A stretch of DNA of 64,000 nucleotides from Terriglobia bacterium (GTDB lineage: Bacteria; Acidobacteriota; Terriglobia; JAJPHL01; JAPKYU01), in NCBI GenBank assembly GCA_965223005.1, contig CBDCVK010000010.1, forward strand, positions 1,019,656 to 1,083,655. The letters run 5' to 3'. A program made the position numbers and the translations under genes. Positions 31,997 through 38,418 of the stretch are shown here, piece by piece. The notes below the pieces were generated by a model, which worked only from the letters and a program-made list of their open reading frames with translations, searched no databases and was not told the origin of the DNA. The stretch's first letter is position 1, and the number at the start of each line of letters is the position of its first letter.

Positions 31997-33088
31997 TTAG
32001 CGGAACTGTCGCAAGAATCTCAAATCCCCCTGGAAGAACAGTTGCAGGTCGTCAATGCCATAGCGGAGCATGGCACACCGTTCGACCCCCATGCCGAAGG
32101 CAAAGCCGGAATATTTCTCGGCGTCATAGTGGACGAAGGGATACAGTGCCGGGTCCACCATGCCGCAACCGAGTAGCTCAATCCAGCCCGAGTGCTTGCA
32201 GAGGCGGCAACCGCGGCCGTCGCAGCCGATGCAGGAGATGTCCACCTCGGCGCTGGGCTCGGTGAAGGGGAAGAAGCTGGGGCGGAAGCGAGTCCGCACG
32301 TGCTCGCCGAAATAGCACTTCAAGAAATGGTCGAGCGTGCCTTTTAGGTCGCAGAAGGTGATGTGAGTATCCACGGCCAGCCCTTCCACCTGGTGAAACA
32401 TGAAGGAGTGCGTGGCGTCGGGAGTATCGCGGCGATAGACCTTGCCCGGGACAATCACTCGCAGCGGGGGTGGCTGCCGCTCCATGGTTCGAATCTGCAC
32501 GGGGGAGGTATGCGTGCGCAGCAGGTAGTCGCCGCTGACGTAGAGTGTGTCTTGTACATCGCGGGCCGGATGGCCGCGCGGGATGTTGAGAGCTTCGAAG
32601 TTGTAGTAGTCGCTCTCGATCTCCGGCCCCACTTCCACCGAGTAACCCATGGAGAAGAAAATCTCCTGGATTTCCTCCAACGCCACCTGGACAGGATGCC
32701 GCGCACCGGGCGTGCGGCGCACGCCCGGCAGGGTGATGTCCAGGCGCTGGGCGGCCGGCAGGGCCGCCTCCTGCGCCGCTTCCAGTTCCCTGCGGCGGGT
32801 TTCCAGCGCCTCCCCAGCGTACTGCTTCAGCTCGTTGAGCAGCCGGCCGACGGAGCGCTTCAGCTTCGGGACCACCGGCTTAAGCCAGTTGTCGTTGGCC
32901 GCAGTCAGAATGCCCCGTTTGCGTCCCAGCCAGCGCACGCGAAACTGCTCACCGTCGTCCGAGGCGGCGAGGTCGCGCAGTTCGCGGTCCATCTGCTCGC
33001 GCAACTTCTGGAAGAGCCGAGCGACTTCGGCTTCCTCGTGCACTCCTAGCTGGTCGAGCTTGCGGCGGACTTGCTCGTCAATTGGCAT
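31997..33088 (-). CDS. pheS: Phenylalanine--tRNA ligase alpha subunit
   Basis: 363 aa with class II aaRS motifs (FRPSFFPFTEPSAEVD, GCGMVDP). Confidence 0.9.
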   Translation of the reverse strand: MPIDEQVRRKLDQLGVHEEAEVARLFQKLREQMDRELRDLAASDDGEQFRVRWLGRKRGILTAANDNWLKPVVPKLKRSVGRLLNELKQYAGEALETRRRELEAAQEAALPAAQRLDITLPGVRRTPGARHPVQVALEEIQEIFFSMGYSVEVGPEIESDYYNFEALNIPRGHPARDVQDTLYVSGDYLLRTHTSPVQIRTMERQPPPLRVIVPGKVYRRDTPDATHSFMFHQVEGLAVDTHITFCDLKGTLDHFLKCYFGEHVRTRFRPSFFPFTEPSAEVDISCIGCDGRGCRLCKHSGWIELLGCGMVDPALYPFVHYDAEKYSGFAFGMGVERCAMLRYGIDDLQLFFQGDLRFLRQFR

Positions 33089-33180
33089 GGAAAATCAGCT
33101 CAGGTGGCATGGAGAATCAGACCAGGAATTTGCTGTGGCCCCTGCCAAGCTGAGGCGCGGGGAAAGCAGGCGTGCCGCGG

Positions 33181-33738
33181 CTAATCCTTGGTGCTACGTT
33201 TGCGAGGCGGCGCGGGTTTTCGCTTGGCCGCCGGAACTTCGCCAACCGACGAGGGTTTTCGCTTGGCTGCCGGAGCTTGGCCAGCCGGCGTGGGTTTTCG
33301 CTTGGCTGCCGGAGCTTGGCCAGCCGGCGCGGGTTTTTGCTCGGCTGCCACGGCTTCGCCAGTAGGCGGTGCTTTTCGCGGTGCTGCCAGAGCAGTGCGG
33401 GCTTGCTCGGCAAGCGTGGCAAAGCCGGGAGCATCCCGAACTGCCAGGTCGGCCAGAATCTTGCGATCCAGTTCCACCCCGGCCAGTTTCAGGCCGTGGA
33501 TGAACTGGTTATACGTAAGTTGATGCTGGCGGGCAGCGGCTCCAATGCGGACGATCCACAAGGAGCGGAATTGCCTCTTCCGCTGGCGGCGGTCCCGGTA
33601 CGCATACCGCAGTCCCTTTTCCACCTGCAGCCGGGCCGCCCTGAAGAGTTTGGACTTCGTGAGGAAATATCCGGAGGCCCGCTCGAGGATCTTCTTGCGC
33701 CTCTGCCGGCGCTTGCTTCCTCTTTTTACTCTGGGCAC
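33181..33738 (-). CDS. rplT: 50S ribosomal protein L20 with a ~65-aa Lys/Ala/Pro-rich C-terminal repeat extension
   Basis: [24 protein letters not shown]... is canonical L20. The tail has about four [13 protein letters not shown] 13-aa repeats, encoded by a 39-nt tandem array. Confidence 0.9.
33213..33370. repeat. 39-nt tandem array (~4 copies) encoding 13-aa repeats in the rplT tail
   Basis: gggttttcgcttggctgccggagcttggccagccggcg(t/c)g repeats with period 39, starting at 33213, 33252, 33291 and 33330. Confidence 0.85.
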
Positions 33739-33759
33739 TGGGTTGCTCCTTTTGACTGT

Positions 33760-33954
33760 CTACTGCCCAAGCATGCGCGCCACGCGTTTGGCCTCAGCTC
33801 CCTCGACCAGCACTGCCGTTCCCAGCTTGCGCTTCCGCTTGCGCGATTTCTTGCTCAAGATATGACGCGCAAAGGCGTGGCGCCGCACCACCTTGCCGGT
33901 TGCAGTCTTCTTGAAGCGCTTACGAGCGCCCCGATGCGATTTCAATTTCGGCAC
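33760..33954 (-). CDS. rpmI: 50S ribosomal protein L35
   Basis: [25 protein letters not shown]... Confidence 0.9.
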
Positions 33955-34056
33955 CTACACACCTCAATCGGTTAGGGTGATGAGTTCAACGAGCAATGAG
34001 TGAAACCCGATGGCGTGCCGAGCCTGCCTTAACTCATGACTCTTCACTCAAACTGT

Positions 34057-34623
34057 TTAACTCTTAACCTGCCCGGCAGACTCGGAGGATTGCGGCCGGG
34101 ACTGCTGCGCCTGCTTTTTCGGGGCCAGAATCGCGATGATGGTATGCCCTTCCATGCGCCCGCGACTCTCGACCATACCCAGGCCCGAGATGTCCTGAAT
34201 CAAGCGCTCCAACACCTGCCGTCCGATGTTGGAGTGGGTGATCTCGCGACCGCGAAACACGATGACCACCTTGACCTTGTCCCCTTCCGTGAGAAAGCGC
34301 GCGACATGGTTCTTCTTGAACTGGTAATCGTGCTCATCCACGTTGGGCCGGAACTTGACTTCCTTGACCACCACATGATGCTGGCGCTTGCGAGCCTCGT
34401 GTGCGCGCTTGCTCTCCTGGTAGAGGAACTTGCCGTGGTCCATGATCCTGCACACGGGCGGCTGTGCAGTGGCCGAAATCTCTACCAGATCCAGGCGCTG
34501 CTGGCGGGCGATCTTGATTGCCTCGCTGGGAGGCATGATGCCCAATTGCTCCCCGGAATCGGAAATGACGCGTACCTCACGGGCACGGATGCGCTCGTTG
34601 ATACGGTTCGGGCGTTGGGCGAT
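34057..34623 (-). CDS. infC: Translation initiation factor IF-3, probably starting at a non-AUG AUC codon
   Basis: Extending the track ORF upstream in frame gives I-AQRPNRINERIRAREVRVISDSGEQLGIMPPSEAIKIARQQRLDLVEIS, matching the conserved IF3 N-terminus. The reading frame opens right after an in-frame TAA. The only plausible start is ATC at rc 34621-34623, 6 nt after aaggagg. Confidence 0.8.
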   Translation of the reverse strand: MAQRPNRINERIRAREVRVISDSGEQLGIMPPSEAIKIARQQRLDLVEISATAQPPVCRIMDHGKFLYQESKRAHEARKRQHHVVVKEVKFRPNVDEHDYQFKKNHVARFLTEGDKVKVVIVFRGREITHSNIGRQVLERLIQDISGLGMVESRGRMEGHTIIAILAPKKQAQQSRPQSSESAGQVKS

Positions 34624-34697
34624 AAAAATCCTCCTTTACTAACCGTGGAAACAGGGATTCCTGCGCTGGCCGGCCGCGGCCGCCCCCAGGGAAGCCG

Positions 34698-34706
34698 ACA
34701 GTATAG
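34698..34706 (-). promoter_or_regulatory. Extended -10 element TGCTATACT upstream of infC (inside the thrS-infC spacer)
   Basis: rc of agtatagca, about 75 nt upstream of the AUC start. Confidence 0.35.
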
Positions 34707-34777
34707 CACAGCGCGACTTCGCTGGGCGGGGATGGAAACAGTTGTTTTCTTCCACTGTTTTCATCCGGCGGGCGTTC

Positions 34778-36718
34778 TCATTCTGCTGGAACCTTGCGCT
34801 CGACCAGCTCCTGTGTCTCGGCGATGAACTGCTCCAGGCTGCGGCTGCCCAGGTCGCCGTGCCGCCGGTTCCGGACGCTGACGGTGCCCTCCCGCGCCTC
34901 CCGGTCGCCCACCACCAGCATATAGGGGACCTTCTGCAGCTGCGCCTCCCGAATCTTGAAGCTCACCTTCTCGTTTCGCTCATCGGGACGGGCGCGTAGC
35001 CCGGCCTCCTTCAGGCGGGCCGCCACCCGCCGGCCGTAGTCGTGGTGCCGGTCGCTGATGGGCAGCACCACAGCCTGCACCGGGGCCAGCCACAGCGGGA
35101 ACGCCCCGGCGTAGTGTTCCAGTAGCACGCCGAAGAAGCGCTCCACCGCCCCGTACAGGGCACGGTGCACCATCAGCGGCTGGTGCGGCTTGCCATCCTC
35201 AGCGATGTACTCGAGCCCGAAGCGGTGGGGCAGCGTAAAGTCAAACTGGATGGTGCTGAGCTGCCACGGGCGGCCCAGCGCGTCCAGCAGCTTCAGGTCA
35301 ATCTTGGGGCCGTAAAAGGCAGCCTCGTCGTGCATGATCTGGACGGAGATGCCACGCTCCTCTAGTGCCTGGCGCAACGCGGTTTCCGCCAGACGCCACT
35401 GCTCGGGGGTGCCGTCGTACTTACCCGAGGCGCCGTCATCCCAGGTGGACAGCTCCACCTGGTAGCGTTCGAAGCCGAAGGTATCGAGCACGTGGAGCGC
35501 GAAATCCAGGCAACCCACCACTTCGTCTTTGATCTGCTCCGGAGTGCAAAAGATGTGCGCGTCGTCCTGGGTGAAGCCGCGGACGCGGAGCAGCCCGTGC
35601 ATCACTCCGCTGCGCTCGTAGCGGTAGACCGTTCCCAACTCGCCGAACCGGACCGGCAACTCGCGGTAACTGCGCAGTCGATCCTGGTAGATGAGGATGT
35701 GGAAGGGGCAGTTCATCGGCCGGAGCTGGTACTGGGCGTCCTCCAGCTCCATCGGGATGAACATGTTCTGGGCGTAGAAGTTGGTGTGCCCGCTCTTCTT
35801 CCACAGGTCCAGCCGGGCCACGTGCGGCGTGTACACCAGGTCATAGCCATGCTTCAGATACTCGTCCCGCATCCAATCTTCCATGATCTTGCGGACCAGG
35901 CTGCCCTTGGGATGCCAGAAGATCAGTCCTGGCCCGGCGGCCTCCTGGACGCTGAACAGGTCCAGCTCGCGTCCCAGCTTGCGGTGGTCTCGCCGGCGGG
36001 CCTCCTCCAGCCTGGCCAGATACTGTTCCAGCTCCTTGCGGGTGTAGAAGCTGGTCCCGTAGATGCGCTGCATCTGAGGGTTGTGCTCGTCGCCCTTCCA
36101 GTAGGCGCCGGCAACGGACAGCAGCTTGAAGGCCTTGATCTTGCCGGTCGAGGGAATGTGCGGCCCGCGGCAGAAATCAATGAAGTTCGGCCCCAACGTG
36201 TAGCAAGAAAACACATCTTCGGCCTTCTCATTGATCAGCTCGCACTTCATCTGCTCGCCCATCCCTGCAAATTTCTTCAGACCCTCTTGCTTGGGGAATA
36301 GCAACCGGTCGTAGGGGAGATCCTTCTCGACCAGTTCCTGCATCTTCTTCTCGATCCGCTCCAGGTCCTGCTCGGTGAAGCGCTCGGAACGCTGGAAATC
36401 ATAGAAGAATCCGGTGTCGGTGGGCGGGCCGATGCCCAGTTTGGTTTCCGGGAACAATTCCAGCACGGCGGCGGCCAGCAGGTGGGCGCTCGAATGGCGG
36501 TAGACTTCCAGTGCCTCTGGGTCTTTCTCGGTCAGGATTCGAAGCCGGGTATCCTGCTCCAGCGGGCGCTTCAGCTCTACCAGATTCCCGTTGACCTGGG
36601 CCACCAGCGCGGCCTGAGCCAGCCGTGGGCCCAGCGAGCGGGCTACCTCCAGAGGGGTAGTGCCCTTTTCGCAATCCTGCCCACTGCCGTCGGGGAGAGT
36701 AACCTTGATCGTCGCCAT
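34778..36718 (-). CDS. thrS: Threonine--tRNA ligase
   Basis: 646 aa with TGS, editing and class II catalytic domains plus an anticodon-binding domain. Confidence 0.9.
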   Translation of the reverse strand: MATIKVTLPDGSGQDCEKGTTPLEVARSLGPRLAQAALVAQVNGNLVELKRPLEQDTRLRILTEKDPEALEVYRHSSAHLLAAAVLELFPETKLGIGPPTDTGFFYDFQRSERFTEQDLERIEKKMQELVEKDLPYDRLLFPKQEGLKKFAGMGEQMKCELINEKAEDVFSCYTLGPNFIDFCRGPHIPSTGKIKAFKLLSVAGAYWKGDEHNPQMQRIYGTSFYTRKELEQYLARLEEARRRDHRKLGRELDLFSVQEAAGPGLIFWHPKGSLVRKIMEDWMRDEYLKHGYDLVYTPHVARLDLWKKSGHTNFYAQNMFIPMELEDAQYQLRPMNCPFHILIYQDRLRSYRELPVRFGELGTVYRYERSGVMHGLLRVRGFTQDDAHIFCTPEQIKDEVVGCLDFALHVLDTFGFERYQVELSTWDDGASGKYDGTPEQWRLAETALRQALEERGISVQIMHDEAAFYGPKIDLKLLDALGRPWQLSTIQFDFTLPHRFGLEYIAEDGKPHQPLMVHRALYGAVERFFGVLLEHYAGAFPLWLAPVQAVVLPISDRHHDYGRRVAARLKEAGLRARPDERNEKVSFKIREAQLQKVPYMLVVGDREAREGTVSVRNRRHGDLGSRSLEQFIAETQELVERKVPAE

Positions 36719-36861
36719 GTCCGATTCGTCTGAATGCGCGTAAGCCCCTTAAGGTATCAAAGATCGCCTGGCATGCGAAGTAGGAGGCACCCGCCGCCGG
36801 CGCTTCCGATCGGCATTGGCCAGGTATGATATAAGCTCCACGTTGCCGGCCTGAGCGTTCT

Positions 36862-38418
36862 ATGTTTCGGAAAGTGTTGATTGCTAATCGTGGCGAGATC
36901 GCGGTGCGCATCCTCCGCGCCTGCCGGGAGATGGGTATCGCAACCGTAGCCGTCTACTCGGAAGTGGACCGCGCGTCGCTTCACGTGCTGCGCGCCGACG
37001 AGGCCTACTCCATCGGCCCGGCGGCGGCCCCGGAAAGCTATCTGCGAATTGACCGCATCCTGGAGGTAGCCAAGCGGTCCGGCGCCGAGGCCGTCCATCC
37101 CGGCTACGGGTTCCTGGCCGAGAATCCGGAGCTGGCGCGAGCTTGCGAAGCGAGCGACATCGCGCTGGTTGGCCCTAGCTCGGCGGCCATGGATCTGATG
37201 GGCTCCAAGACGCGCTCCCGCCAAGCGATGAAGGCCGCTGGCGTCCCGGTGGTGCCCGGCACCCACTCGAGCGTGGAATCCACCGAGCAGGCGGCGTCCG
37301 TGGCTGCTGAGCTGGGCTACCCGGTGATGGTGAAAGCGGCGGGCGGCGGCGGCGGCAAGGGCATGCGTCTGGTTCAAGACGCTGCCGGATTGCCCGCGGC
37401 CTTCCGTGATGCGCGCTCGGAAGCGTTGAACGCCTTCAATGATGCGGAAGTGTACCTGGAGAAGTACCTGGAACGGCCGCGCCACATTGAAATTCAGGTG
37501 CTGGGCGACCTGCACAGCAATCTCGTGTATTTGGGCGAGCGCGAGTGCTCCATCCAGCGCCGCCACCAGAAGCTGGTGGAGGAATCCCCTTCCCCGCTCG
37601 TGGACGAGCCGCTGCGCAGGCGAATGGGGGAAGCGGCAGTCCGGGCGGCGCGTGCCGCCGACTACTGGAACGCCGGCACGGTGGAATTCCTGGTGGACCG
37701 CAATCGCAATTTTTATTTTCTTGAGATGAACACCCGGCTCCAGGTGGAGCACCCGGTCACAGAGATGGTTACCGGACTGGACCTGGTGAAGCTGCAACTG
37801 GCGGTAGCGGCCGGCGAGCCGCTCCCGTTTACCCAGAAACAGGTGCTGGCCGGACGGCATGGCGCGGCGCTCGAATGCCGGATTTACGCCGAAGACCCCG
37901 ACAATCAGTTCTTTCCTTCTCCCGGCATGATCACCGAGCTGGTCGCTCCGGGCGGGCCGGGGGTGCGCGAGGATAGCGGCGTCTACCCCGGCTGGACGGT
38001 ACCGGTCGAGTACGACTCACTCATCGCCAAGCTCATCACCTGGGGCCGTGACCGCGGTGAAGCCATCCAGCGCATGCGCCGCGCCCTGGACGAATATTTC
38101 ATCGCGGGCATCAAGACCACCATTCCGTTTTTCAAGCGCCTGCTGGAAAATCGGGAGTTCGTGGCTGGCGAGTTGGATACCGGCCTGCTGGACCGGCTGC
38201 AGGCGGCCGCGCCGACCTCCGATCCAGGCAGGACTGCGGACCTTGCCGATATCGCCCTGATCGGTGCCGCGCTCTATGCCGCCGGGCGCAACAGTCGCGG
38301 GAATGGGCAAGGGCAAGGGAATACGTCACAGCGGGATTCGGGGTCGCGGACGAGCGCCTGGAGGCAACAAGGCCGACATGAGCTCATGCGCATCCCGGTT
38401 TTCAGATCGCGCAAGTAA
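36862..38418 (+). CDS. accC: Biotin carboxylase (AccC-type) with a ~70-aa disordered C-terminal extension
   Basis: MFRKVLIANRGEIAVRI... ATP-grasp fold, GGGGKGMR. No BCCP or carboxyltransferase gene adjacent. Confidence 0.85.
   Translation: MFRKVLIANRGEIAVRILRACREMGIATVAVYSEVDRASLHVLRADEAYSIGPAAAPESYLRIDRILEVAKRSGAEAVHPGYGFLAENPELARACEASDIALVGPSSAAMDLMGSKTRSRQAMKAAGVPVVPGTHSSVESTEQAASVAAELGYPVMVKAAGGGGGKGMRLVQDAAGLPAAFRDARSEALNAFNDAEVYLEKYLERPRHIEIQVLGDLHSNLVYLGERECSIQRRHQKLVEESPSPLVDEPLRRRMGEAAVRAARAADYWNAGTVEFLVDRNRNFYFLEMNTRLQVEHPVTEMVTGLDLVKLQLAVAAGEPLPFTQKQVLAGRHGAALECRIYAEDPDNQFFPSPGMITELVAPGGPGVREDSGVYPGWTVPVEYDSLIAKLITWGRDRGEAIQRMRRALDEYFIAGIKTTIPFFKRLLENREFVAGELDTGLLDRLQAAAPTSDPGRTADLADIALIGAALYAAGRNSRGNGQGQGNTSQRDSGSRTSAWRQQGRHELMRIPVFRSRK

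Follow-up and report, generated by a model that had tools for sequence, protein, structure and literature searches.

Initiation of infC at AUU or AUC is found across bacteria, and such starts are the target through which initiation factor IF3 regulates its own synthesis (PMC5499595). For Escherichia coli, the AUU start of infC and translational autoregulation by IF3 were described by Butler, Springer and Grunberg-Manago (1987) and by Brombach and Pon (1987), both as cited in PMC5499595 and PMC2830850, and according to the references given in these two papers repression by IF3 is lost when the AUU is changed to AUG. Initiation at AUC in E. coli proceeds at about 1–2% of the level seen with AUG, with methionine inserted at the N-terminus (bioRxiv 10.1101/063800). 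Other near-cognate starts have been documented with differing kinds of evidence: mass spectrometry and mutagenesis proved that infC of Flavobacterium johnsoniae starts at ATA (PMC7797042), an ATA start was inferred from alignments in Deinococcus and Thermus (PMC2830850), and an ATT start was confirmed in Listeria (PMC13068326). The precedents in which the protein N-terminus was traced to such a codon, in E. coli and F. johnsoniae, come from phyla other than Acidobacteriota.

We examined infC in a window of DNA from a Terriglobia bacterium, the window being the whole stretch of 64,000 nucleotides that was analysed. The locus resembles E. coli infC in adjoining thrS and lying upstream of rpmI-rplT, in having a non-canonical AUH start after a Shine-Dalgarno sequence, and in having no usable canonical start; by analogy, the same feedback logic would be expected of the window gene. 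It differs in its proposed start, which is AUC whereas that of E. coli is AUU, and in its shorter N-terminal tail, with 3 residues ahead of the RPNRIN motif compared with 10 in E. coli. Like the infC genes of F. johnsoniae, Deinococcus and Thermus, it combines a misplaced public start, a conserved N-terminus upstream of the annotated start and a near-cognate AUH initiator; the initiator in those genera is AUA, a codon that also occurs in 3/89 Acidobacteriota loci, whereas the window has AUC, and F. johnsoniae does without Shine-Dalgarno usage, in contrast to the near-perfect Shine-Dalgarno sequence of the window infC. The known AUC-initiated infC of a GC-rich bacterium has the same initiation codon and belongs to a different phylum; to this we add phylum-wide counts for Acidobacteriota. 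The IF3 homologue of Myxococcus xanthus, dsg, is also said to start at AUC. The elements of the reading frame to which we refer are as follows.

34057 to 34623, minus strand: infC coding sequence as re-annotated, from ATC to the stop TAA (34059-34057), 188 codons, encoding IF3 with both domains complete.
34621 to 34623, minus strand: ATC, read as AUC in the mRNA and proposed as the initiation codon, 6 nt past AAGGAGG; the homologous codon is conserved.
34630 to 34636, minus strand: Shine-Dalgarno sequence AAGGAGG, read directly, with an information peak at -10 to -6.
34636 to 34641, minus strand: consecutive in-frame stops TAG (34641-34639) and TAA (34638-34636), which shut the frame 5' of the start.
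34627 to 34629, minus strand: in-frame ATT two codons 5' of the ATC, rejected as a start, 0 nt from the Shine-Dalgarno sequence.
34543 to 34545, minus strand: TTG, the first canonical in-frame start in the list of open reading frames, corresponding to codon 27 of the proposed gene.
34536 to 34534, minus strand: ATG chosen by the public gene call, 29 codons downstream of the ATC.

A sequence-only reading of this DNA had placed the feature at 34545-34640, which is plus-strand numbering; infC itself lies on the minus strand, where the frame reads TTC CAC GGT TAG TAA AGG AGG ATT TTT ATC GCC CAA CGC CCG AAC CGT ATC AAC GAG CGC ATC CGT GCC CGT GAG GTA and the translation from the ATC is (I/M)AQRPNRINERIRAREVRVISDSGEQLG. 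Its description of the immediate surroundings was accurate: the frame opens right after an in-frame TAA, as part of the pair TAG-TAA at 34641-34636, and the ATC (34623-34621) stands 6 nt downstream of AAGGAGG (34636-34630), the spacer being ATTTTT. A canonical in-frame start able to keep the conserved N-terminus is absent, with the TAG TAA block upstream; an in-frame GTG or TTG further upstream, the presence of which had been named as an objection to the ATC, does not occur between the ATC and the two stops that lie 4 codons before it. The nearest canonical codons, TTG and ATG, are 26 and 29 codons downstream of the ATC, and the frame is without a stop from the ATC through to the TAA at 34059-34057. 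Assembly error is excluded because the identical infC sequence is present in independent assemblies and samples (loci L081-L084).

The start codon was then compared across the phylum. A scan that took a single genome for each species yielded 80 Acidobacteriota loci with 55-69% IF3 identity, and 15 loci were added via closer or NCBI-annotated proteins, giving the set L001-L095; one locus on a contig of 3x coverage (L088) was left out because it had no N-terminal anchor. At each locus we followed the frame back from the conserved N(E/D)RIR motif until a stop was reached and picked as start the ATG, GTG, TTG, CTG, ATT, ATC or ATA with the longest Shine-Dalgarno core 3-11 nt upstream, a heuristic rule that treats canonical and non-canonical codons alike. 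Since the loci share kinship, the start-codon counts are not independent events. With that proviso, 83 distinct upstream sequences gave ATC as the Shine-Dalgarno-linked start 80 times and ATA 3 times, at spacings of 5-9 nt; once the added loci were included, ATC accounted for 86/89 distinct, related loci and ATA for 3/89, while ATT, ATG, GTG and TTG were found in 0/89. Each of the 83 distinct loci (83/83) has a GGAGG core at 5-9 nt from its start, the commonest spacing being 5 nt.

Most Terriglobia share the arrangement cGGAGGAnnGT ATC GAY AAR CGN TTY ATC (I-D-K-R-F-I), and a stop is often encountered only 10-13 codons upstream of N(E/D)RIR, a few codons ahead of the ATC, with no intervening canonical codon. 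The closer relatives of the window gene (75-93% identity) all have GGAGG, a spacer of 5-9 nt and ATC GCC, and their sequence further upstream is unrelated. At one of the loci, L090, five codons of the IF3 N-terminus are duplicated (RTNERI-RTNERI).

With 88 distinct loci lined up on their chosen starts, the information per column stays at 0.1-0.5 bits upstream of -12, climbs to 1.1-1.7 bits across GGAGG and reaches 2.0, 2.0 and 1.79 bits at the A, T and C of the start codon; from the ATC onwards it varies with a period of 3 nt, third positions being weak. Judged by the alignment, this jump in information and onset of periodicity at the Shine-Dalgarno sequence and ATC is the signature of a translation start there. 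Initiation of infC at ATC, as originally proposed, is thus upheld both by the counts and by the point at which conservation and periodicity begin, and the comparison with Acidobacteriota relatives that had been put forward as a check gave a conserved N-terminus and no canonical codon as Shine-Dalgarno-linked start in 89 loci.

The third base of the start codon also appears to be constrained, being C in 85/88 loci. Internal isoleucine codons of the same 89 genes are ATC in 60%, ATT in 37% and ATA in 3% of cases, from which the naive binomial probability of a start that is never ATT is 2e-18, a figure that takes no account of phylogeny; elsewhere in this alignment, synonymous third positions are nearly randomised. 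That ATT and canonical starts number zero despite free synonymous turnover of isoleucine codons therefore argues for selection on codon identity, and hints that the exact near-cognate start codon is under selection in Acidobacteriota.

The explanation that we favour, and consider highly likely as a whole, is an AUC start at 34623-34621 coupled to feedback by IF3 on its own mRNA. Ribosomes would start at this AUC on the minus-strand transcript, 6 nt downstream of the strong Shine-Dalgarno sequence AAGGAGG, and initiator tRNA would decode the AUC to place (f)Met as the first of 188 IF3 residues; use of the AUC as a start in vivo is very probable indeed. IF3 destabilises 30S initiation complexes on codons that are not AUG, GUG or UUG, and for that reason an excess of the factor should repress infC mRNA, with a shortage of IF3 leading to de-repression. 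We infer this autoregulation from two sources, the work on the AUU start in E. coli and the general capacity of IF3 to discriminate between start codons, and by that analogy it is likely that the AUC mediates it.

It is also conceivable that the AUC is a real start which acts only as a low constitutive throttle, or persists as a lineage-inherited quirk, with no IF3 feedback on the gene's own mRNA. A simple throttle would fit the efficiency of near-cognate starts in E. coli, at only about 1-2% of AUG, and a search for regulatory RNAs with Rfam gave nothing either way. We nevertheless think this improbable: a canonical or ATT start occurs in 0/89 loci despite free turnover at other isoleucine codons, discrimination against non-canonical starts is general to IF3 and the window IF3 is a full-scoring equivalog, and the literature takes the AUU or AUC of infC as the target of feedback (PMC5499595).

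The sequence-only reading had further regarded ATC as the only plausible initiator. The support for ATC stands, but an in-frame ATT at 34629-34627 had been overlooked, which, if used as AUU is in E. coli, would give a product beginning M-F-I-A-Q-R. This codon is the classical infC start, is in frame downstream of the TAA and is kept in a 93%-identical relative; it abuts AAGGAGG, however, and a spacing of 0 nt is outside the workable Shine-Dalgarno distance and at odds with the 5-9 nt observed across 83 loci. Moreover, the ATT is confined to the window lineage and the 93%-identical relative, whereas L089-L093 are without any ATN at that position and yet all keep ATC GCC 5-9 nt from GGAGG. We accordingly reject the ATT as a start, an assignment we consider very unlikely, in favour of the ATC.

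How much of the protein lies upstream of the canonical codons was judged from profile and structure alignments. When the frame is translated from immediately behind the TAA, the whole of Pfam IF3_N (positions 1-70/70, E = 1.5e-32) and of IF3_C (positions 1-86/86, E = 5.1e-33) is matched. IF3_N is full-length only with a start at or before the ATC and is cut short from TTG or ATG, open reading frames from these codons entering the profile at position 20 or 23 of 70. The equivalog model TIGR00168 scores 225.9 bits against a cut-off of 60 over model positions 2-170/170, and its alignment opens two residues after the ATC codon, which therefore puts position 1 on the residue directly after the ATC. 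The sequence-only reading had placed 26 codons of IF3 homology ahead of the first canonical start; the TTG at 34545-34543 is indeed exactly 26 codons after the ATC, and the N-terminal 28 residues, MAQRPNRINERIRAREVRVISDSGEQLG, match IF3_N positions 1-21 when searched alone (E = 1.3e-6, 28.9 bits against a gathering cut-off of 26.9). Solved IF3 structures from E. coli, Geobacillus and Thermus align with the full product, beginning at residue 3 or 8, the match to the E. coli structure chain having E = 8.7e-53, and the upstream residues align to E. coli residues 10-37 and to Geobacillus and Thermus from residue 6. Because of these IF3_N and TIGR00168 matches and the alignment to solved IF3 chains, the 26-codon N-terminal extension is, on sequence grounds and far beyond chance, real coding sequence.

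A canonical start at TTG 34545 or ATG 34536, giving an IF3 of 159-162 aa with the upstream similarity as a relic, is scarcely credible, even though automated callers took ATG 34536 (P0001 and 21 cluster members) and a GGGGAG precedes the TTG by 3 nt and the ATG by 12 nt: such a start deletes IF3_N positions 1-19 or 1-22, whose conservation spans E. coli to Thermus and which are present in solved structures, the 26 upstream codons are stop-free, IF3-like alone (E = 1.3e-6) and conserved with codon periodicity over 88 loci, GGGGAG is merely the codons of a conserved S-G-E, and two in-frame stops and a strong Shine-Dalgarno sequence stand exactly at the expected start site.

Within the protein itself, residue 52 counted from the ATC (34441-34443, minus strand) is a histidine in the motif RIMDHGKF, in place of the tyrosine of RIMDYGKF that we take, by our own count, to be residue 70 of E. 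coli IF3. The same histidine is found in two relatives, P0002 (RVMDHGKF) and P0005 (KIMDHGKF), while other inspected homologues and the solved structures have tyrosine or cysteine.

Public annotation reflects the difficulty of such a start. The database protein for this exact gene, P0001, has 159 aa, the N-terminus MPPSEAIK and a start at ATG 34536, and members of its 90% cluster are listed at 157-159 aa. On comparison with the reading frame set out above, P0001 is evidently a truncation, so that the suspicion that automated annotation had shortened the gene proved correct. An exact look-up in the protein collection for the 188-aa ATC forms (beginning with M or I) and for the 162-aa TTG form found none of them. 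Annotated N-termini of database homologues are very heterogeneous, with products of 155 to 316 aa, as is usual where a start is non-canonical and so escapes gene callers. By contrast with P0001, the infC of another Terriglobia genome, NCBI record P0034 (GCA_003225565.1, MDKRFIR...), is annotated from the homologous Shine-Dalgarno-linked ATC (L094 position 601), in a protein 66% identical to the window IF3. A further NCBI record, P0033 (L095 position 601), begins at an internal ATT with the Shine-Dalgarno-linked ATC 5 codons upstream.

The genes thrS-infC-rpmI-rplT-pheS follow one another on the minus strand, an order known as the conserved IF3 neighbourhood and recognised here from open reading frames and from Pfam matches on the identical L081 genes. 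The parts of this neighbourhood discussed below are as follows.

34778 to 36718, minus strand: thrS (threonyl-tRNA synthetase), the upstream neighbour; open reading frame, with Pfam TGS, tRNA_SAD, tRNA-synt_2b and HGTP_anticodon on the identical L081 gene.
34700 to 34708, minus strand: extended -10-like TGcTATACT in the thrS-infC spacer, the putative infC promoter, 85 nt upstream of the ATC.
33760 to 33954, minus strand: rpmI (ribosomal protein L35), the operon partner downstream of infC; open reading frame, PF01632.
33181 to 33738, minus strand: rplT (ribosomal protein L20), an operon partner with a repeat-bearing C-terminal extension; open reading frame, PF00453.

The infC promoters of E. 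coli lie inside thrS. The apparent promoter in the window is, unlike these, an extended -10 within the spacer of 154 nt between the thrS stop (34778) and the ATC, and transcription of infC would probably start from this element, TGcTATACT (34708-34700). The motif is kept in L085, L091 and L093. It was spotted by eye first and then tested against shuffles, and TGnTAnAnT was found upstream of infC in 81/88 distinct Acidobacteriota loci as against a mean of 0.9 in the shuffles; across the loci it lies mostly 40-52 nt before the start, compared with 85 nt in the window. A consensus sigma-70 scan of 33900-35000, for which a -35 is a requirement, returned no promoter on that account; no recognisable -35 accompanies the extended -10. 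These observations suggest a dedicated extended -10 promoter for infC in the thrS-infC spacer.

Searches for other regulatory features of the leader gave little. A terminator scan of 33900-35000 yielded one terminator-like site, on the wrong strand and no more than chance would give. The L20 leader (Rfam RF00558 and related) had no match upstream of infC or rpmI, nothing relevant appeared in 32500-37500 at E <= 1 with Rfam, apart from one chance lncRNA match elsewhere, and at the gathering threshold the whole window contained a tRNA-Ser only. The fold of the leader RNA (34560-34780) has z = -2.08, and sequestration of the Shine-Dalgarno sequence or AUC was not convincing.

We also considered a 41-codon ATG open reading frame at 34639-34764 (minus strand), which takes up the thrS-infC spacer, in frame with infC and ending at the TAG before the Shine-Dalgarno sequence. 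Its layout might point to an upstream open reading frame coupled to infC, but we rejected it as coding and regard it as probably spurious. A 1-nt indel separates it from the 93%-identical relative and shifts the frame, so that the C-terminal halves, MKTVEENNCFHPRPAKSRCAILSASLGAAAAGQRRNPCFHG and MRTTVSHPRPAKSRCAILAAPYGVGRGRPAQESPFPRFDEGLKKL, are unrelated; because it is frame-shifted in the closest relative and has the putative promoter inside it, it does not qualify as a conserved upstream open reading frame.

Several features of the neighbourhood may be recorded in their own right. Just past the thrS stop is an imperfect 12-bp hairpin, GGAUGAAAACAGU...ACUGUUUCCAUCC (34730-34766, minus strand), which is without a U-tract and is mostly deleted in the 93%-identical relative L085. 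The C-terminal extension of rplT is ~65 aa long, abounds in Ala, Pro and Lys, and consists of a 39-nt (13-aa, ...PAAKRKPxPAGQA...) tandem repeat in 4 copies at 33208-33362; since the rplT product is 185, 198 or 211 aa long in near-identical strains, the copy number of this repeat varies in the population. At locus L089 (230-895), thrS is not upstream of infC, its place being taken by a PhdYeFM-type antitoxin, an AF2212-like gene and a Mutator-family transposase.

The AUC start had been put forward as a variant circuit worth confirming, but it is already published (PMC5499595) and is already in the NCBI record P0034. Given that published usage of AUU and AUC and that record at the homologous ATC, initiation of infC at AUC was known beforehand, in Acidobacteriota too, and what is new here is the phylum-level start-codon statistics only. 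Nor does the AUC start open a new biological question, as it has long been established that infC starts at a non-AUG codon and that this start has a role in feedback by IF3. The main value of the result lies in annotation: in practice the start of infC is corrected to 34623, calls for this gene and for many relatives are truncated or wrongly extended, and callers limited to ATG, GTG and TTG will go on mis-starting infC. For Acidobacteriota a simple rule may be applied, in which the infC start is the Shine-Dalgarno-linked ATC (86/89 loci) and never ATT.

One tentative implication concerns the biology of the phylum. The third-base pattern makes it possible, though on balance doubtful, that purifying selection on the third base holds the infC start at AUC, rarely AUA and never AUU. 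If this were so, AUC and AUU would not be interchangeable set-points for IF3 feedback in Acidobacteriota, which could mean a lineage-specific tuning of discrimination by IF3 or the initiator tRNA, together with a fixed spacing of 5/6 nt from GGAGG and a dedicated extended -10 promoter.
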